From: Oceanicoccus sp.
Lineage (GTDB): Bacteria; Pseudomonadota; Gammaproteobacteria; Pseudomonadales; Dasaniaceae
Assembly: GCA_051277205.1 (NCBI GenBank)
Contig: JBNMPW010000001.1
Coordinates: forward strand, 1,405-65,404
Direction: 5' to 3'
Length of the DNA: 64,000 nt
Every line of letters starts with the position of its first letter. Positions within the stretch are counted from its first letter, which is position 1. Of this stretch, positions 11,995 to 36,079 are shown piece by piece. The notes below the pieces were generated by a model. It ran no database searches. It saw only the letters and a program-made list of their open reading frames with translations, and had not been told where the DNA came from. The position numbers were made by a program, and so were the translations under genes.

Positions 11995-12747
11995 ATGAAA
12001 AATATTTACATCGTAGCAATAAGTATAATGTTATCGGCAGGCGGCCTAAAGGCTGATACTGTAGGTTTCCAAGTTGGTGCCAATATCTGGCAACAATCTT
12101 TTAGCGGTAAGGTGCTAGCCGACAGTAATTCAACCAATACTATTGATATCGAAGATGACTTGGCCTATGACGATGAGCAAGCCAGCAATTTTTATGTTGC
12201 CTTAGAACACCCGATCCCGCTTTTACCCAACATCCGTCTAGCACAAACTGAGATCGATGTTAGCGAAGCCTCAACTTTTAACCGTAATATCGACTTTGAC
12301 GGTGAGATTTATAACGTCAATGAAGAAATCACTTCCAGCAGTGATCTAAGTCACACCGATGTCACGCTTTATTATGAGTTACTAGACAACTGGATATCGC
12401 TAGACGTGGGTATCACCGCGCGTATTTTTAGCGAAGGTTTCAATATCCAAAGCTTAACCACCTCTTCGGGTTTTGAATTGGATGAGACGTTACCCTTAGT
12501 CTATCTTGCAACAAAATTTGATTTACCCCTCAGCGGTCTCTATGTCGGTGCTCACGCAAACGTTATTAGCTATGACGGTAACAGCATTGTCGACTACAGC
12601 ATCAACCTCGGCTATGAAACAAAATTAGGCTTGGGCATTGAGGCGGGATTTCGCAGCCTGAAGCTAGATTACGAAGAAGACAGCGATGACGAAGCTGCCG
12701 ATATTACTATTGATGGCGGCTATGTTGGCTTGTTTTATCACTTTTAA
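11995..12747 (+). CDS. Outer membrane beta-barrel protein (TIGR04219-like)
   Basis: Signal peptide, ALEHPIPLLPNIRL, LYYELLDN, C-terminal YHF. Confidence 0.8.
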   Translation: MKNIYIVAISIMLSAGGLKADTVGFQVGANIWQQSFSGKVLADSNSTNTIDIEDDLAYDDEQASNFYVALEHPIPLLPNIRLAQTEIDVSEASTFNRNIDFDGEIYNVNEEITSSSDLSHTDVTLYYELLDNWISLDVGITARIFSEGFNIQSLTTSSGFELDETLPLVYLATKFDLPLSGLYVGAHANVISYDGNSIVDYSINLGYETKLGLGIEAGFRSLKLDYEEDSDDEAADITIDGGYVGLFYHF

Positions 12748-12967
12748 AAACCATCCTCGGCGCCATATCCGTCACCCCTGATATGTTTTATCGGCGAGAG
12801 CCCCTGCGTATCTAGCAACTTTAGACCTTAAAGCAATACTCAACTACTGAATTCCGGCTACCACCATGTCGGAATGACGACGCAACTGGATTCACACCAT
12901 CAAACTATAGCGGCTTTAACGTCCTGAGTTTATAATCGCACTACTTACAACGGATTATTACTCAGCA

Positions 12968-13630
12968 ATGCGCACTGTTTTATTTTTTAGACAATTACTC
13001 TTGTTATGTATGAGCTATGGCTATCTTACGCCAGCGTTGGCGGAGTGTGATTGCCTATGGCAGGGGTCATTCGCCCAATCCTATCGCCAGGCCGACTTTA
13101 TTGTTAGCGGCACAGTCATCAACAACAAAGGTAATTCAGCAGACTTTAACATTGAGCGAACTTTGCTCGACAAAGGCATTGGCAACAAAGAGTTTAATAG
13201 CATGATTCGGTTTTGGGCTGATACCGCCGAAAACATAAAGCAACAACTACAAGTGTGCCGCCCCGCCATCAGCGATTTTCCAATCGGCTCCGAATGGGTA
13301 CTGGCATTAAATAAAATCACCGACATTCCCGACCATGGTTTTAACCCCAACACTCCCAACGTCAGCTATGGCCGTATTAATGATTACGCACTATCAAAAT
13401 GTGGCGGTAATTGGTTGCGCGTTAATGAAGGGATGGTCAGCGGCAACTTAGTCAAAGGGCGGCGCTGGGAATGGCAGAACGACAGCATGAATCCGGTACT
13501 GATAGAATTGGTTGATGCCTATATAAAAGACATCATTCCAGAGGCGGCCTTAGTCGAAGCGGCTAAACCGTTAACCGAAGCAAAAATATTAATGGAAAAA
13601 ACCAAAGGCTATTTAGAGACCCAGCAATAA
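12968..13630 (+). CDS. Exported protein with N-terminal CxC motif (TIMP/NTR-like fold suspected)
   Basis: Signal peptide ALA/ECDCLWQGSF...ADFIVSGTV plus two further Cys. Confidence 0.55.
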   Translation: MRTVLFFRQLLLLCMSYGYLTPALAECDCLWQGSFAQSYRQADFIVSGTVINNKGNSADFNIERTLLDKGIGNKEFNSMIRFWADTAENIKQQLQVCRPAISDFPIGSEWVLALNKITDIPDHGFNPNTPNVSYGRINDYALSKCGGNWLRVNEGMVSGNLVKGRRWEWQNDSMNPVLIELVDAYIKDIIPEAALVEAAKPLTEAKILMEKTKGYLETQQ

Positions 13631-13638
13631 TCGAGCGG

Positions 13639-14102
13639 CTATCGTTGCATTTTCACAATCGGCACTTTAACGCCATTGCTAGTTACAAAATATCCAGTCG
13701 CGGTTTCTTCAAAACCCAATGAGGCGTAAAACGCTTTGGCACTGACGGTCGCCACTAAACACACCAGCCCTTGATGTTGCTGCCGAGCTAAACGCAAGCC
13801 CAATTCCGCCAAAGTATTACCGATACCCTTACCGGCACAATCTGGGCGGACAAATAAATTGCTAATCTCGCCAGGTTCAACCCCCATATAGGCAACTACC
13901 TCATCGTCCAGCTCGGCAACACATAATTGTTTATTCAACAAATGTGAATTATAGGTTACAGCCATGACTGACTGCGACAAGGGTCGATGATCTCCTGCGG
14001 ATAAAATTGACCACATAACTGACGCACCGAGCGACTAAAGATTTTTACAATCGCCTTTATATCTCTCGATGCGGCTAAATGGATACCCACTATCGGTGTC
14101 AT
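13639..14102 (-). pseudogene. Frameshifted GNAT acetyltransferase
   Basis: N-terminal half MTPIVGIHLAASRDIKAIVKIFSRSVRQLCGQFYPQEIID (14102-13956) is in one frame. The acetyl-CoA motif LFVRPDCAGKGIG and AFYASLGF are in another (ORF 14016-13639). Confidence 0.7.
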
Positions 14103-14113
14103 TCTCGTCAACT

Positions 14114-15295
14114 TTATTGCTGGCGATCTAGCCGCATAGCCGGCAAGAAAACCACTAACATGCAGCCAACCAGCGCTACTACTGCGACATTAATCAGCAT
14201 ATCGTAATTGCCTTCACCCACTAATAACGCCGCGACAAAGGGGCCTGAGGCCAGACCCATTTTAGAGGCAAAGCCACCCAGCGCGGCGGTTTGTCCGGTT
14301 TCATCAAAGGATGAACACATACCCAATAAATAAGAAATCACAAAGGCCCAAGTAATACCAACGCCGACATTGGCAATCCAATACATCGACGGCTGCTCGC
14401 TATAATGCAAAACAAAGGTACCGACCACGGTCAAGGTGGTAGCAACTAATATCGGCACCAACCGGCCGAACCGGGTTGAAAATATAATCACCATCACCGA
14501 ACCCGCTATCGCGATCCAAGCGGCGACACCCAGCGTTGAACTAATAAAACCCATTTCCAAAGCTGCGCTTTTACCCATACCAATAATATAAGCGTAGATA
14601 CCCATATTCGCCGCCTGAAATAAAAATGTCGCCAATAACGCCAGCGCCAATAATTTAATATTGAGTGGCCCGCTGGCCACCGCTTCTGGCGATTTTTTCT
14701 GCACAGGGTAATCTGCTAAAAATGGCAACATCAATAAAGTGACAAAACTAAAAGCTATCAACGAAAAAAATAAAACCGAGGTACCATACTCAGGCACCAA
14801 CCCTGGCAGATACATTAGGCCCACACCGCCCAATCCAAATTGTACTGTCAGCAAATAACCGAAAGTACGGTCAGCCTCTGTGGTACGCGAGATAACTGCA
14901 AAGCCGATGCCCACCAACAAACCACCGATAAAGCCATGAACAAACCGCGCGCCAATCATCAACTCCGCTGAACTGATATAAATCGAAAAAATATCCATCG
15001 CTATTAAACTCAGAAGCAACAGTACAGACACTCGCTTCCAAGGTATTTTTTTAATTAAAAAAACCGCCAGCAACGCACCAAAAGCCGCTCCATAAACATT
15101 GGCCGACCCGACAAAACCGGCTTGCTGGTTAGTAAAGCCCAAACCATCAATTAAGCCATCGACTAACGCAGGCATGATGTTGACATAAAATAAACCCGCC
15201 GTGGCCAAGAAAGACAGCAATACCCGTGCGACCTCACCATTTGGCGCCGCGGTAGGAAATCGCTTCGTTGTTGCGTTAATTACCGTATCAGTCAT
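14114..15295 (-). CDS. MFS transporter
   Basis: About 12 hydrophobic segments; STRFGR loop motif. Confidence 0.85.
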   Translation of the reverse strand: MTDTVINATTKRFPTAAPNGEVARVLLSFLATAGLFYVNIMPALVDGLIDGLGFTNQQAGFVGSANVYGAAFGALLAVFLIKKIPWKRVSVLLLLSLIAMDIFSIYISSAELMIGARFVHGFIGGLLVGIGFAVISRTTEADRTFGYLLTVQFGLGGVGLMYLPGLVPEYGTSVLFFSLIAFSFVTLLMLPFLADYPVQKKSPEAVASGPLNIKLLALALLATFLFQAANMGIYAYIIGMGKSAALEMGFISSTLGVAAWIAIAGSVMVIIFSTRFGRLVPILVATTLTVVGTFVLHYSEQPSMYWIANVGVGITWAFVISYLLGMCSSFDETGQTAALGGFASKMGLASGPFVAALLVGEGNYDMLINVAVVALVGCMLVVFLPAMRLDRQQ

Positions 15296-15307
15296 AGCCG
15301 TTATCTC

Positions 15308-17116
15308 TTATGCATTATTGTTATTTTCCAATTTAGCCTGCCGGCAAAAAGGACGAAGTTGATTAGACAGCTTTGCGGCATGCCTCCAAGTAAATTTACC
15401 TGCGTCACTAAAATAATAATAAACTGTTTTATTCGGTAGCATGACCACACTGATACCGCCGTAAGCGCTCATATAAGGTATCCACATATCATTAGCGCAG
15501 CCCAAAAAATCTTTTAAATTTTTTGCCCAGACACCATTGTTGTAACGCACATCATCGGCGCCGGCTATTAAACCGCGATCATCATCATTGCGCTGCAGCG
15601 CTGCATCTAACATCTGCGCATCAACCCGATGATATAAAAAGCTGCCGCTATCATTCATTGCCGCCGCCATTCTAGCGATATCGTCACGGTAGAAATTTAA
15701 GCCGTAACCAAAAAATGGCTGACGCCGGTCATCGTAGCTTCGGCTAGCATTGCTGTTTGCGGGACTTAATTGTAATGGCCGCCACAAGGATTGGTAGACA
15801 TAATCAAAGGCATCAACAGGGGCTTTTTCTAATTGCTCAATAAAACCACTGATCGCGGCGCCAAGAATATAAGTATCTGACGTATGGTAAACCCAGTCTA
15901 TTCCGGCTGGCGACTTGGACGGCATGCTTTGGCAGGCAAAGTTAATTTTATCCTCATGGCTTTCGACCAAAAAAAACTGTTGATCCATTACACTAGACCA
16001 CTCATCTAAGCGATCGTCGATCTGCTGATAAAATCCAGCCGCCATATCCACCGTGTTTTCAAATGATACTTTATCCCAACCTAATTCAGCTGAGCAGGCC
16101 GGCACATAATCCGCGATCTTTTTTCGACTAACACCTGGATGCTGTTTTTCTAAATACATTAAGCCCAAACCCGCAAACACGGTTTTAGCCAAGGAATATG
16201 ATGGCAGGTCCATGATGTCACAATAGGGATATGGCCCATGCCGAGTTTGGCAGCTGCTGACATAATTGACACCATCAATCACCAAACCATACAAGGTCAT
16301 ATCACTGGCGGGGATTATATCTCGGCCACCTAACGCACTTAAATCAACCGCTTCATAATCTACCGCCAACTCAGCGATGGGCTTAACCGGCAACCGCCTG
16401 CTGCGCTCTTGATGATACTCTGCAATCAACTGCTGCCGGTTTTCGATCACCGCTGGCACATAGCTGGCGAGGGATACGCCCGATAGATCGAACTTAAAAT
16501 ATTTACAGGTTTCGCTGCTAATCTGAGTCGCCACCTTGGACATTGAGCCGTCAGATCTGAACAAGAACGTTAGCACCCCATTGTGGGTGCAATTTGCATT
16601 GCGCTCACGCAAGGAGAACGGCAAGGAAGCGCGGCTATAACCCTGATCAGTCGCTTGCTGCCAGACCTTTCCAGGACCAACAATGGTCTCCCACAAAGGG
16701 TGCTGACCAGCCACAATCTGGCGCTGCAGGGGAATCAAATCAAAACCCGATTGCAGCAAACCGATGTCCAACGCCGGTAACTGGTTTAACGTTAATGCAG
16801 GCTTAGCGGCAAAATTATAGTCATCTTGGTAGTAACGAATGGTTGCCTGTTGCCCTGATGCCAGTATTAAACGGCCCTGAAAAGTATTGCTAGGAAGCTT
16901 TGCATCGGCCGGCATGGTAAACGCCGACATCGCAAAGGGGCGCTCTAGTGTTGTCGCAGGCTGGTCTGCTGACAATAAATAATCAGCGCTGATTAACGCC
17001 GCGACCCGCTCTTGTGCAAGCGACGGCTCCGCACCAACGATGGAGACCAGCAACGCCAACATCAGCAGTAACAGGGATGATCGATAACGGCTCTTTGAAA
17101 TATAGCCCATGGGCAT
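15308..17116 (-). CDS. Exported serine hydrolase (beta-lactamase-like fold) with unknown N-terminal domain
   Basis: Signal peptide; SYSLAKT (SxxK), WVYHT (YxN-equivalent), SAYGG. Confidence 0.7.
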   Translation of the reverse strand: MPMGYISKSRYRSSLLLLMLALLVSIVGAEPSLAQERVAALISADYLLSADQPATTLERPFAMSAFTMPADAKLPSNTFQGRLILASGQQATIRYYQDDYNFAAKPALTLNQLPALDIGLLQSGFDLIPLQRQIVAGQHPLWETIVGPGKVWQQATDQGYSRASLPFSLRERNANCTHNGVLTFLFRSDGSMSKVATQISSETCKYFKFDLSGVSLASYVPAVIENRQQLIAEYHQERSRRLPVKPIAELAVDYEAVDLSALGGRDIIPASDMTLYGLVIDGVNYVSSCQTRHGPYPYCDIMDLPSYSLAKTVFAGLGLMYLEKQHPGVSRKKIADYVPACSAELGWDKVSFENTVDMAAGFYQQIDDRLDEWSSVMDQQFFLVESHEDKINFACQSMPSKSPAGIDWVYHTSDTYILGAAISGFIEQLEKAPVDAFDYVYQSLWRPLQLSPANSNASRSYDDRRQPFFGYGLNFYRDDIARMAAAMNDSGSFLYHRVDAQMLDAALQRNDDDRGLIAGADDVRYNNGVWAKNLKDFLGCANDMWIPYMSAYGGISVVMLPNKTVYYYFSDAGKFTWRHAAKLSNQLRPFCRQAKLENNNNA

Positions 17117-17172
17117 GGTGAATCATCTAATTATTATGGTGGCACCAGCCTAACAGCTTCAGCAAGGCTGAG

Positions 17173-17204
17173 TAGAACCAGTTAATAACGCCACATGAGG
17201 CCAG
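17173..17204 (-). promoter_or_regulatory. Putative MocR-family operator, copy 4 (upstream of serine hydrolase-MFS-GNAT)
   Basis: CTGGCCTCA-N14-CTGGTTCTA; -10-like TAGGCT at 17152-17147. Confidence 0.75.
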
Positions 17205-17217
17205 ATAAGCCCATTGG

Positions 17218-18255
17218 CTAGTTTATATAAACGGGATAAAAATCGGTGTCTGGATCTGAGCCAGCTCGCACCAGCATACAACCGCGTTGTAGCTGCATAA
17301 TCACCGAAAACACCGTGCCGACATTACCAAAGCCCGCTGTCAATGAAGGGCTGTAATCACGACAGATCGAATTCTCGCCCTGAGTTTGGTCCAATAACAG
17401 CGCTACAATACCTGCCTCAGAACTATCTGCCGCCGAAAGTTTCCTAGCCGTTTGATAACGCTGATAGGTCGATGGAAATGCCTCCACCGTATTTAAGTCC
17501 GGATCAGCCAAAAAATGATTAGTATGCAAGATTAAACCATCGTCTAAGGGCAACTGATAATGGCCATCGCCCGCAAACTCGACACTGCTATATTCACCGG
17601 TGGCGCTAGCCACCAAGATATGACTGGCCTTACCCGGCGCGATACGCGTAATTAACGCCGTCACCGCAGCCATGCTCCGGCAATCGAGAATCGCCCGCAG
17701 CAAAATGTGTACCGGTAAACCTTGTAGGCGCTGCTCAACTTTAAGGATATTTAAGCAGACACCTATACCTGCGCTATTCATGCCGATTTTGCCGATAATA
17801 CCGGGCTCGGTCAGCATGCTAATACGATGGCCGTTGGCATGCTGAATCTTTATCTCAGTGACCAGCGGTTCAAGGCGCTGCGACCAATCCCAGTTCTGCG
17901 CCAGCAATGCTTCCGAGTGTTTATAGACTGCCGTACATTCAGGGATGCTTAGATTATTTAATATTTCTGAGCGACTATTAAGGGCATAAATATAATGAGC
18001 ATCAATGCCAGACCCAGCAGCAATGGCTTCAATCTCCTCTGCGTAAGCGGGATTGAAATCGTTGATGATTGCCCGATAATTATCGGCCATGGCGAATAAT
18101 TTGGTCTCGGGGAGATTAAACAATGCCAGATAGTATTCTAGCGTTAGCCCGATGCGCGACTTTAATTGGAGGCCGTGTTGGTAGCCAATTTCATAGGGGC
18201 TGCCGGTTAACTCCAGTTCTTTAAAGCGCATATTGGTCATAATCTCTCTTCTCAT
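17218..18255 (-). CDS. C45-family autoproteolytic Ntn hydrolase/acyltransferase
   Basis: NSRSEI...PECTAV (Cys nucleophile), AQNWDW, GKIGMNSAGIGV, HTNHF. Confidence 0.88.
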   Translation of the reverse strand: MRREIMTNMRFKELELTGSPYEIGYQHGLQLKSRIGLTLEYYLALFNLPETKLFAMADNYRAIINDFNPAYAEEIEAIAAGSGIDAHYIYALNSRSEILNNLSIPECTAVYKHSEALLAQNWDWSQRLEPLVTEIKIQHANGHRISMLTEPGIIGKIGMNSAGIGVCLNILKVEQRLQGLPVHILLRAILDCRSMAAVTALITRIAPGKASHILVASATGEYSSVEFAGDGHYQLPLDDGLILHTNHFLADPDLNTVEAFPSTYQRYQTARKLSAADSSEAGIVALLLDQTQGENSICRDYSPSLTAGFGNVGTVFSVIMQLQRGCMLVRAGSDPDTDFYPVYIN

Positions 18256-18291
18256 TATGGCTTAAGGTATGAGTCAGATTGCTACCCATAT

Positions 18292-18316
18292 AAAAAAGCC
18301 AGGCTATTGCCTAGCT
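18292..18316 (-). terminator. Intrinsic terminator after the sulfotransferase
   Basis: Minus strand AGCTAGGC-AATA-GCCTGGCT followed by a T tract. Confidence 0.6.
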
Positions 18317-18383
18317 GAAAACTACAAAGGGAGGGGATATAAATGTAGTTTGCCACCATCATATATCCGTATTACATTTAAAA

Positions 18384-18415
18384 TAGAGCCAGATTGTTGT
18401 TACTGACGAGTCCAA
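18384..18415 (-). promoter_or_regulatory. Putative MocR-family operator, copy 3 (upstream of C45 hydrolase)
   Basis: TTGGACTCG-N14-CTGGCTCTA; -10-like TATGAT at 18363-18358. Confidence 0.75.
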
Positions 18416-18419
18416 CTTA

Positions 18420-19973
18420 TCAATCTATTGCTATACCCGCCGCGGTTAAAATAGCCGCTATTGGCTGCATTTTTTTTTCATAACGCCGCCATTTACCCAC
18501 TGAGGAATTATAAATGGGCCGTCGTACTTGAGTCGCACTTGCAGTGGTTGAAGCCTGTTTGTTTTCATAAAATCGTAGACATTGGTCCTGCCAATCTAAG
18601 CCGCAGTAATTAACTAACTTTCTCGCCTCGCTCTCTGTGTTAGCCACTATATCTTCATAGTTAACCGTATGAATGACGCCAGGGATCACTGTATTCCAAT
18701 GATCCATTAACTGCTGATAGGCCACATAATAATGACCCAACTCATTTAAACTGTATGAAAAAGGGTAGGCATCTTTAAATAATTGCTTATAAACCGCATA
18801 GCAAGTATCCATGGGGTTACGCTGCAAATTAATAATTTTTGCATTGGGCAGAGCTAGATGTATCAAACCGGCGTAAAGATAATTAAACGGCAACTTATCA
18901 ACAAAATGGCCTTGTTCTTTATTTTTCAAACATTCTAAATAGGAAACACCAATATCATTAAAATTTAGCTGCTTAGTTTTTTCAATGAAATCAACTCTAT
19001 TAGTAGCAGTAAGCGAATTTTTAGCCACCTTCAACAAGCTTTCAGAAAAATAATTAATCTCACCAAAAGAGTGTACGTCATCATGGCTGGCCAGTATATT
19101 TTCTACCAATGTTGTCCCAGTTCGGGGCATCCCTATTATAAAAATAACCTCATGCCCGCCATCTTTCGATGCGATATTAAAACAACTCTTATCATAAGTG
19201 CTTATTATTTTATTTATTATCTCTAAGTCAGAATTTATATCATACTGCAAAGTTTTTCTTTTTAATGCCGTTGCTTTTGACAAGTAGCTGTACGACTTAT
19301 CATATGACTCAATGTCCTCACTCTCTTTAGCCGCTGAAAAAAGTAGGTTTATCCTATCCTGGATACCCACAGCCTTATCTTTTAGCAAGCAATCAATGTC
19401 ATCAATATTATTGTTATCCAGAGTCTTAACACTAATACTAGACCGAAGACTATAGGCATCGTAATCTCTTGGATTAATCCCAATAACGATACTTAGGTGT
19501 TTCTCGGCTTTCTCTATTTTCCCTAAGAACCTACACACTGCCGCCAAATTATAATGATAGCTATAATTTTTATCATTCTTCTCTATAGCGTGCATATAGC
19601 AGCTCTCAGCAGCAGCATAGAATCCAAAATCGCAGTAGGCATCGCCAATTCTTGCATAGATAAGATCTGACAAGTCTGGCTCATTAACCATCTCATCCAG
19701 CATTACCTTACCGTCAGTTACTTTACCAAGAGCCATTACACACAAGGCTTTTTGAACCTTATATTTTCTTTCTTCCTGATCTATCGATATAGCTTTATTA
19801 ACGGCATTAAATGCTGAAACAGCATCAATTTTAGTCAGCATACAGCTCGCTAAATACCAACCATCAGCACAGTCGGGATAACGTTGATTGAATAATTTAG
19901 CTTTATGCAAGCCCTGTTGTAACTGGCCTGTATTCAATGACCTAATCAACTCATTTAATAACTCTTTTTTCAT
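18420..19973 (-). CDS. TPR-containing sulfotransferase-family protein
   Basis: TPR helices, then IFIIGMPRTGTTLVE (PAPS loop), DKLP, RNPMD, TASATQVRRPIY. Confidence 0.9.
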   Translation of the reverse strand: MKKELLNELIRSLNTGQLQQGLHKAKLFNQRYPDCADGWYLASCMLTKIDAVSAFNAVNKAISIDQEERKYKVQKALCVMALGKVTDGKVMLDEMVNEPDLSDLIYARIGDAYCDFGFYAAAESCYMHAIEKNDKNYSYHYNLAAVCRFLGKIEKAEKHLSIVIGINPRDYDAYSLRSSISVKTLDNNNIDDIDCLLKDKAVGIQDRINLLFSAAKESEDIESYDKSYSYLSKATALKRKTLQYDINSDLEIINKIISTYDKSCFNIASKDGGHEVIFIIGMPRTGTTLVENILASHDDVHSFGEINYFSESLLKVAKNSLTATNRVDFIEKTKQLNFNDIGVSYLECLKNKEQGHFVDKLPFNYLYAGLIHLALPNAKIINLQRNPMDTCYAVYKQLFKDAYPFSYSLNELGHYYVAYQQLMDHWNTVIPGVIHTVNYEDIVANTESEARKLVNYCGLDWQDQCLRFYENKQASTTASATQVRRPIYNSSVGKWRRYEKKMQPIAAILTAAGIAID

Positions 19974-20023
19974 CCAGACACACTCTGAAAGACAATCATG
20001 AATAGTACAATTTCTTTAGTCAT

Positions 20024-20052
20024 AAAAAAACCGGGCATTGCCCGGTTTTTTT
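20024..20052. terminator. Bidirectional intrinsic terminator after the TonB receptor
   Basis: A7-CCGGGCA-T-TGCCCGG-T7. Confidence 0.85.
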
Positions 20053-20065
20053 GGATTAATGAAAT

Positions 20066-22525
20066 TTAAAACTCATACCCAACATTAACACCTATAGTTC
20101 TAGGTGTCGTTATATAGTCACGCTGGTTATTACCGTAATAATTTTCAAAAGTGCCGGTATCTGTTGACTGATATGCCTCGGGGTAGCTACCCGTTACACC
20201 CTTCTCATTAAACATATTTTTGGCGTAGAGAGAGACTGACCAACTATCCATTCTCAAAGTACTTGTCACACTCCAAATACTAAAACTGTCATGAGTCTCT
20301 TGCTGAGTACTACTATCATCTACGTTATTCAATGAATCTGATTGATAATAACCACTCAAGCGAGTTACCAGAGTCATATCCGTATTAATATCCATCGTAT
20401 GATTCAGACCCAATGTCGCAACATGCTCTGGTGTGCCCGGTAAACGCTGGCCATCTTCGGATAGCACCGCTCCATATTGTGGCTGTATCAAGTCGTCTGT
20501 CAACTCAGCCTTGGTATAAGAGTAACCCGTCGTTACAATCAGATTTTCGGTGATAAGTGCCTCTAACTCTAATTCAACACCTTGAGTTTGAGCCGACTCT
20601 CCGTTTTGGGCCATGAAAAAGCCCCAGTCAGCCGTGGCTGTATCTATTTGCGGATCCTGCCAATCAATAAAGTATATATCAGCGGCATAACGTAATCTTT
20701 CGGTTGAGCCCTTGATACCAATTTCATAGTTTTTCACGGTATCTTTGCCGTATGTTTGTACCGAGTCGATATTGCCTTCCTCAAAAAAACCTGCATCGAT
20801 AATGACGTTTGAGCCACCACGACGGAATCCTTCAGAATATGTGGCATAAAGCATTGCACGATCAGTCACATCCCAAGACACATTGAGTTTAAATTGAGTA
20901 TCGTCTTCTTGCTGACTCGCATACTCTTTAAACGGTACATAATCCGGTTGATCAAACTCAGGGTAAAATGCTGAATCATTGGTTAGTTCATTATCAAACC
21001 AGCGCATACCCGCAGTAACACGCAACTCATCAGACACATTGTAAGTGACCTCACCATATACGGCTAAATCGGTAAAATTTTCCTTTCGTTCGAGAGACAC
21101 ATCTTTATCGTCAGTTGCACCATCCCACCATTCATCTGCTGGTGTTACAGCACCGTACTCTTTTAAACCCAATAAATGACTAAAGTTGGTGGATGAACGA
21201 TCTTGATCCATATAATAAAGACCAGCTAACCAGTCCACTTTAGCATCGCCGTTTGAAACTAGGCGAAACTCTTGAACAACAGCTTCTTCATCATAACCAG
21301 CCTCAACAAACGCCACAGGCCTAGGGTTACCGGTATAGAGTATGTCGAACCAATTCGCGAAACCGCCTCTGTCCGTCACCCAGATACTGGTATTATCTCT
21401 AACGCCATTACCAGAGTGATCATAATAAGATGTATTAGAAGTTAATGTTGCAAAGCCAAGGTCAACCTCCACATCAAGAGTTGTCAACTCTACTTCACGC
21501 TCAGAAGGCTCCAACATAGTTGAGCCGTTATCGTACTCACCGTATTTAATACCGCCGGGTAAATCATTAGTCCAGTTATAGTCACCGCCGTTTGTTACTG
21601 CTCGCCTTGCACCGACTTCATCTTCTTGACGCTGGTAATTTACCTGGATAGAAAGGTCATCAGTAGGCTCAAACCTTAATGAAGCCCGAGCATACTCAAT
21701 CTCAACTGTATCGGCATCATCCTTGGATGTATAACATGAGCCATTATTAATAATTTCACTGTCTGACAAAGAGCTGTCATTGACACTTACACAATCACCG
21801 CTATCCGTTTTCACCACGGGTATACCGTCAGCTAACTGATATAGATTCTTGAAATCAATAATACCATCGTTATCCATTTTTCCTGCTGACACTCTAAATG
21901 CCAACCGATCACTGATTGGTAAATTTAATACCATATCAATATTTTTATTATCGCCATCGGAACCGTCACTTTGGCCGTAGCCTGCATTCACACTACCACT
22001 TACTGCATCCATAGTAGGCTTATTCATAATGTATCGAACGGTTCCACCAAGCGACCCTGAACCATAAAGAGTACCCTGAGGACCTCTTAGAACCTCTACT
22101 CGCTCCATGTCTTTTAACAAAAAGTTGGCAAATATCGGCGTGTTATCAACATAGGTCGATACCGGCGCAACTGTTTGCTGCGCAACATCTCCAGAAATAC
22201 CACCGTTAACATTGATACCTCGAATAACAAGACTATTAGCAAGACCGCTATTTCTATGGCCTCGATCGTTTAAGGTAACACCAGGGATAGTACGCATTAA
22301 TTCTGTGCTATCGACGATTGCCTGCTCGGCGATATCACTCCCTTGAATCGCCGAGATATTAAAAGGAATATCCTGTGTTGATTGTGAGCGAGCGGTTGCG
22401 GTCACCATAACCTCTTCCAGCGCCGCCGAAGCTGAGCTAATAAACGCCACCTGCCCAGCTAACAATGTAGCTGTGGCGATTGAGATCGCTAAGGTTTTTT
22501 GTTGAAATTTGTTTGAACTACTCAT
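20066..22525 (-). CDS. TonB-dependent receptor
   Basis: Signal peptide, TonB box LEEVMVTA, plug motif ERVEVLRGPQGTLYG, C-terminal PRTIGVNVGYEF. Confidence 0.95.
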   Translation of the reverse strand: MSSSNKFQQKTLAISIATATLLAGQVAFISSASAALEEVMVTATARSQSTQDIPFNISAIQGSDIAEQAIVDSTELMRTIPGVTLNDRGHRNSGLANSLVIRGINVNGGISGDVAQQTVAPVSTYVDNTPIFANFLLKDMERVEVLRGPQGTLYGSGSLGGTVRYIMNKPTMDAVSGSVNAGYGQSDGSDGDNKNIDMVLNLPISDRLAFRVSAGKMDNDGIIDFKNLYQLADGIPVVKTDSGDCVSVNDSSLSDSEIINNGSCYTSKDDADTVEIEYARASLRFEPTDDLSIQVNYQRQEDEVGARRAVTNGGDYNWTNDLPGGIKYGEYDNGSTMLEPSEREVELTTLDVEVDLGFATLTSNTSYYDHSGNGVRDNTSIWVTDRGGFANWFDILYTGNPRPVAFVEAGYDEEAVVQEFRLVSNGDAKVDWLAGLYYMDQDRSSTNFSHLLGLKEYGAVTPADEWWDGATDDKDVSLERKENFTDLAVYGEVTYNVSDELRVTAGMRWFDNELTNDSAFYPEFDQPDYVPFKEYASQQEDDTQFKLNVSWDVTDRAMLYATYSEGFRRGGSNVIIDAGFFEEGNIDSVQTYGKDTVKNYEIGIKGSTERLRYAADIYFIDWQDPQIDTATADWGFFMAQNGESAQTQGVELELEALITENLIVTTGYSYTKAELTDDLIQPQYGAVLSEDGQRLPGTPEHVATLGLNHTMDINTDMTLVTRLSGYYQSDSLNNVDDSSTQQETHDSFSIWSVTSTLRMDSWSVSLYAKNMFNEKGVTGSYPEAYQSTDTGTFENYYGNNQRDYITTPRTIGVNVGYEF

Positions 22526-22620
22526 GAATATCCCCTGATTAGTTTTTTACCGTTATTGTGTTATAAGTTTATTAGTATTTTTTTCTAGGCTTAACCATAG
22601 TCAAGCCTAGAAAATCTACG

Positions 22621-22652
22621 TAGTACCAGTTGGTAAGTTTCTATGAGTCCAG
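22621..22652 (-). promoter_or_regulatory. Putative MocR-family operator, copy 2 (upstream of TonB receptor)
   Basis: CTGGACTCA-N14-CTGGTACTA; -10-like TATGGT at 22599-22594. Confidence 0.78.
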
Positions 22653-22685
22653 TTTGCACTCCACAAAAAAGCTGGGCCTATTAAT

Positions 22686-23546
22686 CTACTTATTGCTTTC
22701 TCGCGCTGGCACAAGCAAATCACCCAATTTAGCTAATACCGCCGATTTATCGTGACCATCTATATAAGGCGGAAATTTCACTTTACTGTCTCTAAAACTT
22801 TTTAATGTTTGCCCTAAGCCATGTATCCCGCGCTCTCTAACGCGACGAACATGCTGCATATCAATTTCAATCGGTATCGTCTCTGCGCCAATACCAGCCT
22901 GATAAATAATGGTGCCATCGGGACCAACCACGATAGATTTACCCTGCCCTATATCACCAGCAACATTTATATTAAAGAAATAGCACTGGCCAACGACGGC
23001 ATTGGTACGGGCAATTGAAAGCTCGATATCACGATCAATGGTATTGGTCATAGTTGGGCACAGAATCACTTCAGCCCCCATCCACGCTAGCGTGCGAGTC
23101 ACTTCAGGAAACCATTGGTCGTAGCAAATAGATACGCCAAACCGGCCGACATCGGGTACATCGAAGATACAAAATTGATCGCCGGCCTCAATGCCTTTCT
23201 CATAGGGATAGAATGGGAACATCTTGCGGTAACGGCTTATCACTTCACCATCAGGGTTAATAACCGGTGTCGTATTATAGGTTTTGTCCGCTTCTGCTTC
23301 ATACATGGAACCGGGGATCAACCAAATATTATGTTTATCCGCCAACTGACAATAAAACTGCTCGGCCTTGCCCGGCATCGCCTCTGCGTTAGCAGGGTCA
23401 GAGCCAAAGCTGGCCAATTCGCCCAGTAATATCATATCGACCCAAGGAAAAACACGGACTGTTTTTGCTATTTCCTGCTCAATTTCCGCAAGATTATCTT
23501 TTGCAGAAACGTCTAATTGCAAACTTGCAATCGAGAAGTGACTCAT
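22686..23546 (-). CDS. Carbon-nitrogen hydrolase (nitrilase superfamily amidase)
   Basis: E-K-C triad: LGELA, YRKMFPF, SICYDQWFPE. Confidence 0.92.
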   Translation of the reverse strand: MSHFSIASLQLDVSAKDNLAEIEQEIAKTVRVFPWVDMILLGELASFGSDPANAEAMPGKAEQFYCQLADKHNIWLIPGSMYEAEADKTYNTTPVINPDGEVISRYRKMFPFYPYEKGIEAGDQFCIFDVPDVGRFGVSICYDQWFPEVTRTLAWMGAEVILCPTMTNTIDRDIELSIARTNAVVGQCYFFNINVAGDIGQGKSIVVGPDGTIIYQAGIGAETIPIEIDMQHVRRVRERGIHGLGQTLKSFRDSKVKFPPYIDGHDKSAVLAKLGDLLVPARESNK

Positions 23547-23649
23547 TAAATACCCCTTTAAATGTCACCAGCTAACCGTATTATTTTTTTCGGCTAGATA
23601 TATACAGTGATTATGGGTAGCTAATGTAATAAACGGGAAAGGGTACACA

Positions 23650-23681
23650 TAGAGCCAGTTATAACTTGGTGATGAGTCCAG
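23650..23681 (-). promoter_or_regulatory. Putative MocR-family operator, copy 1 (upstream of C-N hydrolase)
   Basis: CTGGACTCA-N14-CTGGCTCTA; -10-like TACATT at 23628-23623. Confidence 0.78.
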
Positions 23682-23690
23682 ATACTTTGC

Positions 23691-25526
23691 CTAGGTATTT
23701 TCTTCACTACTAGGCTCAGTCTTTTTTAACACCCCCTGGTCAATTAAACGCCCTTGCTCATCAAATAGTTTAAAAATCTCATCATCCATCACTACCTGGT
23801 AGATGCCGATATCAGCCCAGGCCCAACGACTCCATTGCCGACACCAGTGATCACCTTCGACCCACCACTTACCGGTATCGCAATCTTCATTGGCATAACC
23901 CGCCTTGCCAACCAAACTCCCATCAGCATAAAGTTCTATCGAGCAGGGTTCGCCATAGGCAACCGGAGTAAACATGGTAGTGTTGGCCAGCACTTTGGGA
24001 ATATCGCCAGCCAATAACTGCGTGCCTCGCGAATTAGCAAAACTTTCAATTTTATTGGTGGTGAGGTCGTGAATAAGATCACGCAGTTTATCGACGCCCT
24101 CGCGAATACGCTCAGCGGGGATACTGGTCACCCCCATTCTAAAATAATCATTCAGCACTTGTTCACAAGCATAATAATGCTCCATTGGCTCTAACAAAAT
24201 GCCTCGCTTAGCCGCCTCTTGCACCAAGTGCTTAACATTGATATCACTCGACACACGAATCCACAACGCGGTCCCACCTTGTGCCGGGGTAATTTCAACA
24301 TAGGGCAATAAATAATAATTAACCGCGCGGCGCAAAGCGATCCAACGCTGCTCAAAGGTTTCATAAAGATGTAATAAAAAAGTATCGTAATAACCCAGCG
24401 ATAAAAAGAAAGCGGCGCTGCGCTGATTATTAAGTGGCGGATGCCGCACCATCAATCCACTGAGTTTACGTGCCTCTGCAATCACCTCTGGGGCCGCCAC
24501 CATAAAGCCTAAACGTAAGCCCGGCGACAAAACTTTAGACAGACAAGACATATAGATCACCCGGTTTTCGTTATCAATACTACGCAAAGCTGGGTGCGGG
24601 TGACCTAAATAATTACTCTCAAACTCAAAGTCGTCTTCAACAACCAGAAAATCTTGTAACGATGCTTTTTTCAGCAGGGCCTCACGACGCGCCATCGACA
24701 TAGTGACACCGGTCGGCGTTTGATGACTGGGCGTCACAAAAACCAATTGGCAATCATCTAAATGCTCATCAATCAACATGCCCTCTTTATCGACAGGCTG
24801 ATGGATAAGATTGGCGCCGCGCCGATCCAACAACTGCCTAGTGGCTGGATAGCCCGGTTCTTCAACCGCTACGCTAATGCTGTCATCGACCAACAACTGC
24901 GACACAAGATATAGCGCATGCTGGGTTCCGACGGTGATTAAAATTTCATCCGGACCCGCTTGAATACCACGGCGGGGTAAAATCTTGGTGCGAATTTCTT
25001 CGATCAACATCGGGTCATCCGCGTCACCGGTTTCACCCGCCCACTGATTTATCTCCCTAACACCTAGCGCCAGACGGCTAGCCTCGCGCCACTCCTTAAC
25101 CGGATACAGCGAGGTATCAAATTGACCATCGATAAAGGGAAACGGATATTGCTGCCAATTGGGGGGCGCCGAAAATTCTTTTTGTGGCGACAAGGAGCCT
25201 TTAAAACGCTGCTGCCATTGTGAGGTGATGTTAACCGCCGTATCAGACTTACCCTCAAAGCCAACATGGCCAGCCATAATTTTTTCATTAACATAGATCC
25301 CGCTGCGCTCGCGGCTGACCAAATACTCTTCATCGATCAGCTGCTGATACACCAACACCACGGTATTGCGCGCCACAGTGAGTTGGTCAGCCAGCTTACG
25401 GGATGAGGGTAATTTCTTACCCGCGGGGAATGTGCCCAACATAATTGCCTCAACCAGCTTTTGTCGAATCTGACTCTGCAGATTCAACTCGCTATCGGGG
25501 TCGAGATAAATAAGTGTTTTTTCCAT
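23691..25526 (-). CDS. MocR/GabR-family PLP-dependent transcriptional regulator with extra C-terminal domain
   Basis: GntR wHTH (LPSSRKLADQLTVARNTV), aminotransferase-like domain (EEPGY, TPSHQTPTG, EDDFE, SKVLSPGLRLG), ~125 aa Trp-rich tail. Confidence 0.92.
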   Translation of the reverse strand: MEKTLIYLDPDSELNLQSQIRQKLVEAIMLGTFPAGKKLPSSRKLADQLTVARNTVVLVYQQLIDEEYLVSRERSGIYVNEKIMAGHVGFEGKSDTAVNITSQWQQRFKGSLSPQKEFSAPPNWQQYPFPFIDGQFDTSLYPVKEWREASRLALGVREINQWAGETGDADDPMLIEEIRTKILPRRGIQAGPDEILITVGTQHALYLVSQLLVDDSISVAVEEPGYPATRQLLDRRGANLIHQPVDKEGMLIDEHLDDCQLVFVTPSHQTPTGVTMSMARREALLKKASLQDFLVVEDDFEFESNYLGHPHPALRSIDNENRVIYMSCLSKVLSPGLRLGFMVAAPEVIAEARKLSGLMVRHPPLNNQRSAAFFLSLGYYDTFLLHLYETFEQRWIALRRAVNYYLLPYVEITPAQGGTALWIRVSSDINVKHLVQEAAKRGILLEPMEHYYACEQVLNDYFRMGVTSIPAERIREGVDKLRDLIHDLTTNKIESFANSRGTQLLAGDIPKVLANTTMFTPVAYGEPCSIELYADGSLVGKAGYANEDCDTGKWWVEGDHWCRQWSRWAWADIGIYQVVMDDEIFKLFDEQGRLIDQGVLKKTEPSSEENT

Positions 25527-33236: not shown

Positions 33237-34625
33237 TTAATCGTCAAAGTTAACTGACGGTAACTCTTGCAGTGTTTGATCAAGACTAAGCTTGGCCTTT
33301 TCAATAAGCTCATCGATATGCTCGCGAGTCATTATCAGCGGCGGTGAAATAATCATAGTATCGCCTACTGCCCTCATCACCAAACCATTTTTAATACAGA
33401 AGTCACGACATAGGCCGCCAACTTTACCCTGCTGAGGGAAGAACTGTCGCTTTTCTTTATCTTGCACCAGCTCAATCGCTGCTAACAAACCAACACCTCT
33501 AGCCTCACCGACTAAAGGGTGATCTGCCAGTTCACGCCAGCGTTTTTGTAAATAGGGACCTGTGTCTTTATCAACTTTCTCGACAATTTTTTCATCACGT
33601 AATATTTTTAGGTTAGCAATCGCTACGGCAGCGGCTACTGGATGACCAGAATACGTATAACCATGGGCAAGCTCACCACATTTCTCAGCCAACAAATCAG
33701 CGACACGATCACTCACTATAACGCCACCAATAGGCTGATAACCGGAGGAGAGCCCTTTAGCAATAGGCATAAAGTCTGGCTTGATACCGAAGTAATCAGA
33801 ACCAAACCATTTGCCGGTACGACCAAAGCCACAAATCACCTCATCAGCAATCAACAAGATTCCATACTTATCGCAAATTCTTTGAATTTCTGGCCAGTAC
33901 GTTGCTGGCGGAATAATAACACCCCCAGCACCTTGTAAAGGCTCGCCGATAAAAGCGGCGACTCGGTCTACACCGGTTGCCCGTATTTGCTGCTCTAATT
34001 GCTGCGCCACTTTTAAACCAAACTCATCTGGCTCCATGTCGCCACCTTCGGCGTACCAATAAGGCTGGTCAATATGAACAATACCCGGAATAGGTAAGCT
34101 GCCTTGCTCATGCATAAACTTCATGCCACCAAGGCTAGCGCCAGCCATAGTCGACCCATGATAAGCATTGTTGCGGCTGATAATAACTGTTTTTTGTGGT
34201 TCGCCCTTTAAATCCCAATAGCGACGTACCATCCGCACCACCGTATCATTACTTTCTGAGCCAGAACCTGTAAAAAACACGCGATTCAAGTGATCAGGCG
34301 CCAACTCAGCTAATAACTCGGCTAACTCAATCGCCGGCGGCGTGGTGCACTGGAAAAAACTATTATAGTAAGGTAACTGCTGCATTTGTTTATACGCGGC
34401 ATCCGCTAATTCTTTGCGGCCATAGCCAATGTTAACGCACCATAAACCGGCCATACCATCGAGCAACTTATTACCCTCGGAATCCCAAATATAAACACCA
34501 TCGGCATGAGTAATTATTCGCGTGCCCGCCGCACTCAATTCTTTGCCGTCGCTAAACGGGTGGATATGAAATTTTCGATCAGCTTCTTGCAGTTCAGCGG
34601 TATTAAATTCAGTTGATGCGTTCAT
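33237..34625 (-). CDS. spuC: Class III omega-aminotransferase, putrescine:pyruvate type (SpuC-like)
   Basis: DGMAGLWCVNIGYGR, LPYYNSFF, GSGSESND, DEVICGFGRTG, IAKGLSSGY, HGYTYSGHP. Confidence 0.8.
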   Translation of the reverse strand: MNASTEFNTAELQEADRKFHIHPFSDGKELSAAGTRIITHADGVYIWDSEGNKLLDGMAGLWCVNIGYGRKELADAAYKQMQQLPYYNSFFQCTTPPAIELAELLAELAPDHLNRVFFTGSGSESNDTVVRMVRRYWDLKGEPQKTVIISRNNAYHGSTMAGASLGGMKFMHEQGSLPIPGIVHIDQPYWYAEGGDMEPDEFGLKVAQQLEQQIRATGVDRVAAFIGEPLQGAGGVIIPPATYWPEIQRICDKYGILLIADEVICGFGRTGKWFGSDYFGIKPDFMPIAKGLSSGYQPIGGVIVSDRVADLLAEKCGELAHGYTYSGHPVAAAVAIANLKILRDEKIVEKVDKDTGPYLQKRWRELADHPLVGEARGVGLLAAIELVQDKEKRQFFPQQGKVGGLCRDFCIKNGLVMRAVGDTMIISPPLIMTREHIDELIEKAKLSLDQTLQELPSVNFDD

Positions 34626-35512: not shown

Positions 35513-36079
35513 TTACTTACGTTTAGAGCTCCATTTTGGAGAGGTATTGGCACTGACAATCACTAGCGGCTGATCACCCACCGAGCGAAAGCGATGGGGG
35601 GTGGTACCCTGAAAATAATAACCCTGATTAGGGCTTAGCACTTGGGTTTGCTCGCCAACCGTCAACTCCAGCAAGCCCTGTATCACCACACCACCTTCAT
35701 CACCACTATGGCTGATGCGGTCTTCGCCGGTATCAGAACCCGGCTGCATCACCTCCCGCAATATTTCCAGAGCGCGGTCTTTTTGGCCCGCGCCCAGCAA
35801 AAAATAGTCGATGTCTTTTTGACCTAGGTTGGGTTGCTCATCTTCTCGATAAAAAGGTGAGTGCTCGACCTGACTTTCATCGGCAGAAAAAAATTCCGCC
35901 AACGACATAGGGATGCCATCGAGTAGTTTTTTCAATGAGCCCACCGAGGGGCTCACCCGATTTTGCTCTATCAGCGAAATAGTACTGTGGGTGACACCCA
36001 CTCGTTTGGCCAACTCTCGCTGGGAAAGCCCTTCCAGTTTACGAACGGCTTTTAATCTTTCGCCCACATCAAAGGTCAT
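35513..36079 (-). CDS. XRE-cupin transcriptional regulator (PuuR/PauR-like)
   Basis: [47 protein letters not shown] plus cupin (HSGDEGG, PHRFR). Confidence 0.85.

Follow-up and report, generated by a model that had tools for sequence, protein, structure and literature searches.

A gene cluster in the genome of an Oceanicoccus species forms a conserved, operator-linked set that probably serves the uptake of oligoamides of gamma-aminobutyric acid (GABA) and their breakdown to GABA. It lies in a stretch of 64,000 nucleotides (the window) on contig C1 of a 2.94-Mb genome that is 84% complete, and comprises eight open reading frames (ORFs) on the minus strand, at 13639..25526, bounded by a Nudix gene and by two convergent genes that follow hemB (Table 1). 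A preliminary description of the window had placed eight co-oriented genes between backbone-like flanks at this span, and that arrangement stands. Pfam and NCBIfam searches also bear out the gene families it named: a regulator joining a GntR helix-turn-helix (HTH) to an Aminotran_1_2 domain, a CN_hydrolase amidase of the nitrilase superfamily, a TonB-dependent receptor, a tetratricopeptide repeat (TPR) protein with a Sulfotransfer_3 domain, an NF040521 C45 protein, an MFS_1 transporter of the major facilitator superfamily (MFS) and a GNAT fragment. The exception is the 602-residue hydrolase, which on its own found no match in Pfam, NCBIfam or PDB sequence searches.

Judged by sequence and predicted fold, this hydrolase is a member of the Nyl4A family of polyamide 4 (PA4, nylon-4) hydrolases and is not an orthologue of Nyl4Apx or Nyl4Apa. 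In the accessible text of PMC13269358, Nyl4Apx of Pseudoxanthomonas sp. TN-N1 has 841 residues, a mass of 89,006 Da, a 24-residue signal, a region like a carbohydrate-binding module (CBM), a choice-of-anchor D domain and a catalytic domain with the triad S554/K557/Y655; its structural neighbours are 7U1B, 8RLJ and 2DCF. According to the same text, Nyl4Apx and Nyl4Apa (Pseudoalteromonas sp. Y-5) share 48% identity and cut synthetic PA4 to GABA 2-4-mers, Nyl4Apa has no beta-lactamase activity and leaves the 6-aminohexanoate (Ahx) dimer and nylon 6 uncut, and homologues are recognized at >30% identity (PMC13269358). Nyl4A sequences were not found by name among the best 120 homologues listed per search. 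The comparison was made with a metagenomic protein of 841 residues (L060:9074-11599), which carries 11/11 of the printed Nyl4Apx residue landmarks, has a mass of 89,292 Da against 89,006 for Nyl4Apx, and has an NF012200 domain that ends at D261. Against the primers printed in the accessible part of PMC13269358, its gene agrees at 17/20 nucleotides at the mature start and at 16/18 at the C-terminal end. Because its first residues differ from those of the N-terminal primer, it is, from its sequence, a close orthologue of Nyl4Apx and not Nyl4Apx itself.

The window hydrolase is 41% identical to this proxy over 539 residues (E 3e-140, within thresholds of >30% and E<1e-10), and its S308, K311 and Y410 align in register with S554, K557 and Y655. 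These residues, a Ser-x-x-Lys motif with a tyrosine about 101 residues on, as in Nyl4Apx and Nyl4Apa, are invariant across 113 aligned rows. The N-terminal stretch resembles a Sec signal peptide by eye and would correspond to the export signal of those enzymes. Unlike them, the window protein lacks a substrate-binding and an immunoglobulin-like (Ig) domain; its residue 63 aligns with residue 310 of the long form. An AlphaFold model built from the alignment (pLDDT 94.9; a single-sequence model reached 31.8 and was unusable) shows a beta-lactamase fold with an added beta-rich part, as in Nyl4A, and a structure search with the whole model returned 8RLJ (Z 28.9), 2DCF (Z 27.3) and 7U1B (Z 24.4), the same neighbours that a profile search gives. 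Homologues occur in a short form (~580 aa), a middle form (~720) and a long form (~840, with choice-of-anchor D). When 46 catalytic domains were compared in a quick tree, the window hydrolase fell among the short forms, outside a 21-row clade (SH-aLRT 99) that contains all long forms.

The preliminary description had likened this protein to NylB. Nylon-6 oligomers are degraded through NylB, NylC, NylD and NylE by a similar logic of oligomer hydrolysis, omega-transamination and aldehyde oxidation. The likeness to NylB is one of fold (Z about 27), with a structural identity of 13-14% and no NylB match at E<=10 in protein or E<=1 in profile searches, and NylB identity was rejected; the protein is instead a relative of Nyl4A with the catalytic domain only. 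A GABA oligoamide is accordingly a likelier substrate than the small N-acyl amine once proposed, since the SxxK enzyme falls in a PA4 hydrolase family.

The nitrilase, receptor, C45 and hydrolase genes are each preceded by an operator with the consensus CTGGmCyyAt-N13-CTGGyNCTAy, a 33-bp direct repeat. That four promoters share one operator, as had been proposed, is upheld by the genome-wide scan, which ranks these sites first to fourth (29-32 bits against 20.2 for the next site), also in leave-one-out scoring, where only 3-4 genome positions reach the score of the left-out operator. Those further high-scoring sites that were inspected lie within or at the ends of unrelated ORFs. Among 78 distinct sites collected here and in related loci, 53 have a TAnnnT -10 box that starts 19-21 nt after the repeat (shuffles gave a mean of 4.3 and a maximum of 12), so that the second operator box abuts the -35 region, a placement as expected for an activator site. 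The operator follows the MocR gene across genomes: it stands upstream of the nitrilase gene in 15/19 loci with MocR and in 0/7 loci without it, some of which may be cut short (control 1/600). It precedes the MocR gene itself in 0/14 loci and the sulfotransferase gene in 0/36.

The regulator resembles GabR (that of B. subtilis and the proteobacterial GabR, GabR2 and OapR) and TauR in its GntR HTH, its pyridoxal 5'-phosphate (PLP) domain with the lysine kept (Lys331, in CLSK) and its direct repeats. The likeness extends to the regulon, which has a TauR-like box and, in six orthologous loci, operators before gabD or gabT (L035, L045, L085, L104, L111 and L112); the scan of this genome found no operator before gabD. 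Unlike GabR and TauR, it has ~120 extra C-terminal residues and takes hydrolases and a TonB receptor as targets. Its score against NF052285 (GabR) is 221 bits, below the cut-off of 600, and it is not GabR in the strict sense; it passes only the broad NF052282 (341 against 320 bits), as does a taurine-context MocR. In a quick tree it belongs to a long-form clade with 27 rows (SH-aLRT 99), whose sister group is made up of TauR-context proteins. What had been proposed for the cluster is supported by co-conservation and by the geometry of the operators: outer-membrane capture and import, exported hydrolysis, an activating regulator and a freed omega-amino acid as the likely inducer. On sequence grounds, GABA is likely to be that inducer. 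The C-terminal extension (window 23691-24059, minus strand), with the pattern Y-G-x-P-C...G-x-W-W, occurs in all full-length orthologues and is absent in TauR-context relatives; it has no meaningful Pfam match in six orthologues and may form a second domain for sensing.

A TauR-type regulon for taurine conjugates, such as N-acyl-taurines or bile salts, was considered and is highly improbable. The first operator box, CTGGACTCAT, does resemble the TauR consensus CTGGACYTAA given in the accessible text of PMC5320631, likewise in a direct repeat; the nearest outside MocR proteins adjoin tauA and xsc, a sulfotransferase sits in the cluster, and elsewhere PRK07678-type aminotransferases and a SafD-like gene stand behind the pattern. 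However, the taurine genes that mark TauR regulons (xsc, tauABC, tpa) are not members here. Neither xsc nor tauA occurs in any of 63 hydrolase-anchored loci, no xsc orthologue was found in this genome (best 28%) or, in a search at E<=1e-100 made without a positive control, in five relatives, and the taurine-context sites accompany a short MocR of 488 residues. No regulon of the present kind was found in the accessible main text of PMC5320631.

An order-wide scan returned 67 pattern matches in 301 genomes, of which 36 with an ORF behind them, in 30 loci, were examined. Twenty stand before cluster genes (two in this genome), 6 before taurine-type genes and 10 before genes without a match in the reference set. 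Given the 6 taurine-type sites, the box alone does not identify the amine; the neighbouring genes do. The same repeat and -10 spacing are found before PRK07678-type aminotransferases in L192-L194, L196, L197, L199 and L207, with a SafD-like gene in one genome, and in L207 a 488-residue MocR adjoins them. These sites are likely TauR regulons in the same order.

The neighbouring genes point to GABA. Full-length MocR orthologues (57-82%) were found in 5/40 relatives, each followed by nitrilase and receptor genes with operators. Among 14 genome-collection loci, six have the same core (L033-L036, L042 and L045; some of these genomes may coincide with the relatives), six are Advenella-type, with taurine genes around a shorter MocR (L037 has annotated tauA and xsc), and two are unrelated. 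In a hydrolase-anchored metagenome search, the best 80 of 516 matches gave the 63 distinct groups mentioned above, 18 of them long loci, whose flanks extend 7.5 kb or more upstream and 4.5 kb or more downstream. These 18 loci contain nitrilase (16), MFS (16), receptor (15), sulfotransferase (15), MocR (12) and gabT/gabD (8) genes, and none has C45, GNAT, xsc, tauA or puuA/B. When unassigned neighbours were clustered, no further family occurred in more than six loci (that one an APC permease). The hydrolase is present in 4/400 genomes of the class, two at 42-43% with the whole cluster and two at 31-32% without it. Locus L060 combines MocR, nitrilase (58%), receptor, sulfotransferase, MFS, gabD, a long and a short hydrolase and an operator. 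GabT and GabD of L035 and L045 exceed the TIGR00700 and TIGR01780 cut-offs. In the relative G006, the cluster is flanked by gabD, alanine dehydrogenase and a PRK06105 transaminase, with plant POP2 and bacterial 4-aminobutyrate transaminases among the PDB neighbours of the latter. From the earlier list of omega-amino substrates, GABA is thereby retained, but beta-alanine, taurine and polyamines are not.

The check by cluster conservation that had been suggested thus yields nitrilase, receptor, sulfotransferase and MFS as core genes, but the C45 and GNAT genes, each in 0/63 hydrolase-anchored loci, are not equal members. The window C45 protein is a genuine member of its family (NF040521, 230.7 against 85 bits; Cys107 aligns with the cysteine of 2X1D), recurs in 3/5 close relatives and is an accessory member, while the frameshifted GNAT was rejected as a member. 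Two relatives carry additional genes. G017 has a divergent second copy of the cluster (L030:17885-L031:11469; MocR 41%, nitrilase, receptor and MFS, with a long and a short hydrolase) without a match to this operator at 14 bits, and G031 (L029:10998-17757) has two more TonB receptors beside the cluster, separated by an aspartyl beta-hydroxylase-family gene.

Outside the core cluster, the operator leads to long Nyl4A-type genes in three relatives. Five relatives have 15 operator-pattern matches (0 in the reversed control). Eleven belong to the core cluster, and each of the remaining four (in G006, G017 and G018) lies within ~260 nt upstream of an unlinked long Nyl4A-type gene of 840-855 residues. 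In G498 the long form is inside the cluster behind its own operator; no pattern match was found for the long-form genes of G031, G512, G469 and G551. The operator-led long forms carry an Ig domain and the N-terminal region that the accessible text of PMC13269358 describes as CBM-like, and these suit an insoluble or polymeric substrate. They speak against a regulon aimed at a small conjugate of GABA (N-acyl-GABA, a dipeptide containing GABA, or an ester with a sugar, for example GABA-trehalose), for which PA4 cleavage by Nyl4A would be a side activity. The adjacency of long and short hydrolases in L060 and L064 and the release of 2-4-mers by Nyl4A (same text of PMC13269358) argue in the same direction. 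Such a conjugate is rather unlikely as the target, but it has points in its favour: beta-lactamase-fold enzymes include esterases, the nitrilase subfamily is common to operons with a 'biotin carboxylase' ligase, the product of the ligase Rv1722 is GABA-trehalose and not a polymer (bioRxiv 10.64898/2026.04.15.718621), and an ArgE/DapE deacylase gene stands behind a remote operator in G499.

The same transaminase and dehydrogenase could also act on a look-alike of GABA, the chain then consisting of 5-aminovalerate, 2,4-diaminobutyrate (gamma-poly-DAB), glutamate (gamma-PGA) or hydroxamate siderophore units. GabT and GabD do serve 5-aminovalerate in pseudomonads, gamma-PGA and gamma-poly-DAB have the nylon-4 backbone, and a nitrilase orthologue in G370 (47%) lies beside gabD-gabT and a gene that reads by eye as glutaryl-CoA dehydrogenase. 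Yet genes of the glutarate, amine oxidase or ectoine type were not seen to recur among the neighbours, gabT/gabD would be unneeded for glutamate, and the sister operon described below starts from glutamate or, as annotated, from arginine to make GABA, which together make a look-alike chain improbable. The siderophore-degradation reading found no support in a literature search.

For GABA oligoamides, we infer the following route, with jobs and compartments drawn from protein families and the predicted signal peptide. A long secreted Nyl4A with binding domains would first shorten the polymer to GABA 2-4-mers. As no long Nyl4A was found in the 84%-complete genome, the cell may feed on oligomers that others release. 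The TonB receptor would bring oligomers into the periplasm, where the short Nyl4A (15308-17116) would likely trim them, and the MFS protein would move dimer or GABA inward. The nitrilase-fold amidase, likely cytoplasmic, would split the last amide, with C45 as an accessory. By analogy with GabR, GABA would form an aldimine with PLP on the regulator and so activate the four promoters through the direct repeats abutting the -35 region. GABA transaminase and GabD, whose genes many species carry within the cluster and this genome at other sites, would then convert GABA to succinate. This genome has ald-gabD on contig C76 and other class-III transaminases.

Several observations weigh against this reading. 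The Nyl4A membership rests on a landmark-matched proxy and not on deposited Nyl4A sequences, and the window hydrolase, which falls outside the proxy's long-form clade, may have a different specificity. The genome, at 84% completeness, yielded no long Nyl4A and no close GabT, nor a close orthologue of the GABA:pyruvate-type transaminase of the relatives (best 42%). That transaminase has an orthologue (71-72%) in 3/4 tested relatives but not in G031, a 2-oxoglutarate GabT was not found in the five close relatives at E<=1e-60, and gabT/gabD are not within the flank in 10/18 long loci. The remote operator of G499 precedes a deacylase, G613, one case in five, has operator and nitrilase with no hydrolase match, and the same box also precedes taurine-type genes in other genomes. 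The sulfotransferase, usually directly 3' of the receptor gene, is left unexplained by the scheme, and no natural GABA oligoamide was found in the literature. The TPR-sulfotransferase may be a general receptor partner rather than a pathway enzyme; no description of TPR-sulfotransferases beside TonB receptors was found in the literature. Paralogues of it occur on contigs C80 and C106 of this genome, and the C80 copy also follows a TonB receptor.

The nitrilase links the cluster to a second operon type. It occurs at E<=1e-60 in 6/399 other genomes of the class. Two of these have the Nyl4A-type cluster, three have it beside a ~960-residue decarboxylase, a PRK06524 ATP-grasp protein and C45 (two also beside gabT), and in the sixth it lies near gabD-gabT. 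The decarboxylase matches Rv2531c (E 3.5e-249), a glutamate decarboxylase whose neighbouring genes are not mentioned in the accessible text of PMC13506015. Among plasmid records, 8/9 have the ATP-grasp ligase within 10 kb of the nitrilase, and annotated examples of the decarboxylase-ligase operon span Roseobacter and Chondrinema. In Shinella the decarboxylase gives way to an arginine-catabolic gene set whose annotation offers a route to GABA, and Rhizobium combines decarboxylase, ligase and C45 but lacks this nitrilase. The NF005096/PRK06524 family, annotated 'biotin carboxylase', presumably also includes Rv1722. In M. tuberculosis, this ATP-grasp protein activates GABA for GABA-trehalose (bioRxiv 10.64898/2026.04.15.718621). 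Unlike the Rv2531c and Rv1722 systems, the window locus has neither gene; ligase and decarboxylase were detected in no Nyl4A-type uptake locus, and neither was found in this genome.

Because one amidase subfamily occurs in both the GABA-conjugating operon and the Nyl4A uptake regulon, their sequences suggest a shared GABA amide, and the glutamate decarboxylase/ATP-grasp/C45/gabT operon is a possible producer of it. We tentatively put forward, as a minority expectation, a natural nylon-4: a widespread operon of decarboxylase (or arginine route), PRK06524 ligase, C45 and nitrilase would build and remobilize a GABA oligo- or polyamide as a carbon and nitrogen store, in the manner of cyanophycin, and the window locus would be a scavenging regulon evolved to eat it. 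If true, this would explain the ready biodegradation of synthetic PA4 in sea and soil. The window C45 and the producer-type C45 are 24% identical over 125 residues, and a derivation of the former from the latter was rejected. The genome has a second C45 gene (C54:13079-14098; 35% to the window C45), which had no operator match in the genome scan. PRK06524 ligases have a conserved tail, GAFKIL, in 72/120 sequences, with lysine in all of the 15 commonest endings. In Roseobacter ponti (L161:3488-6847) the operon adjoins the general-stress genes NepR, sigma factor and Dps, and in Shinella a universal stress protein gene; such neighbours would fit a stress-linked store.

The Nyl4A enzyme family and sensing by MocR proteins are already known; the regulon and the nitrilase link between two locus types, with its possible pointer to natural nylon-4, are added here. 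As the preliminary description had it, no characterized pathway with this gene set was found in the literature, nor were the two locus types, the regulon or a natural GABA polymer, and 2022-2024 papers of the Nyl4A group may describe neighbouring genes. The accessible part of PMC13269358 does not describe neighbouring genes, regulator or natural substrate of Nyl4A, and that of a 2026 nylon review does not mention Nyl4 (PMC13215870). PA4 is one of few polyamides that degrade in seawater, and only two extracellular enzymes have been described. The locus supplies candidates for all the missing steps (receptor, periplasmic trimmer, carrier, dimer hydrolase, sensor and operator), several of them present in cultured strains, and its regulator and operator would provide a means of biosensing the products of PA4 breakdown. 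That a dedicated regulon is shared by distant bacteria implies that its natural substrate predates the plastic. Polysaccharide utilization loci and the extracellular cyanophycin and polyhydroxybutyrate (PHB) depolymerase systems likewise combine a secreted depolymerase and binding domain, receptor, periplasmic trimming, carrier and product-induced regulator. The present locus differs from these in having no glycoside hydrolases or known depolymerase families and, likely, GABA as the monomer.

Table 1. Genes, operators and other features of the cluster (positions in the window)
Feature	Position	Strand	Remarks
MocR/GabR-family regulator, 611 aa	23691..25526	-	~120-aa C-terminal extra domain; without own operator
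Operator 1, CTGGACTCAT-N13-CTGGCTCTAT	23649..23681	-	-10 box TACATT 20 nt downstream
Nitrilase-superfamily amidase	22686..23546	-	E43/K108/C141; no signal peptide; core gene
Operator 2, CTGGACTCAT-N13-CTGGTACTAC	22620..22652	-	-10 box TATGGT
TonB-dependent receptor, 819 aa	20066..22525	-	core gene
Intrinsic-terminator-like hairpin, A7/T7 tails	20024..20052	-	3' of receptor gene; read from sequence
TPR-sulfotransferase	18420..19973	-	GMPRTGTT and RNPMDT motifs intact; no operator; core gene
Operator 3, TTGGACTCGT-N13-CTGGCTCTAT	18383..18415	-	-10 box TATGAT
C45 Ntn cysteine hydrolase/acyltransferase	17218..18255	-	Cys107; no signal peptide; accessory
Operator 4, CTGGCCTCAT-N13-CTGGTTCTAC	17172..17204	-	-10 box TAGGCT
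Nyl4A-family serine amidohydrolase (by sequence and predicted fold), 602 aa, catalytic domain only	15308..17116	-	S308/K311/Y410; predicted Sec signal peptide
MFS transporter, 393 aa	14114..15295	-	core gene
Frameshifted GNAT pseudogene	13639..14102	-	5' frame 14102-13956, 48 codons; 3' frame ends 13639; passenger

The GNAT gene had been described as broken, and the frameshift is confirmed. Contigs of 4/4 runs show no indel against the window, one of them spanning the whole stretch, and the break is therefore present in the population, with the caveat that the four runs may stem from one campaign. Metagenome runs with the stretch come mainly from ice, sediment and seawater; 7/24 listed runs contain at least half of its words (one is possibly the source), and no RNA run with the stretch was among those listed. 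About 8 kb from the cluster lie a class-III transaminase (33237-34625, minus strand), which resembles putrescine aminotransferase by eye, and an XRE/cupin regulator (35513-36079, minus strand) that is PuuR-like by eye. The left flank (11995-13630, plus strand) encodes a TIGR04219 outer-membrane barrel and a cysteine-containing protein of 220 residues without a family, and is kept in the relative G010.

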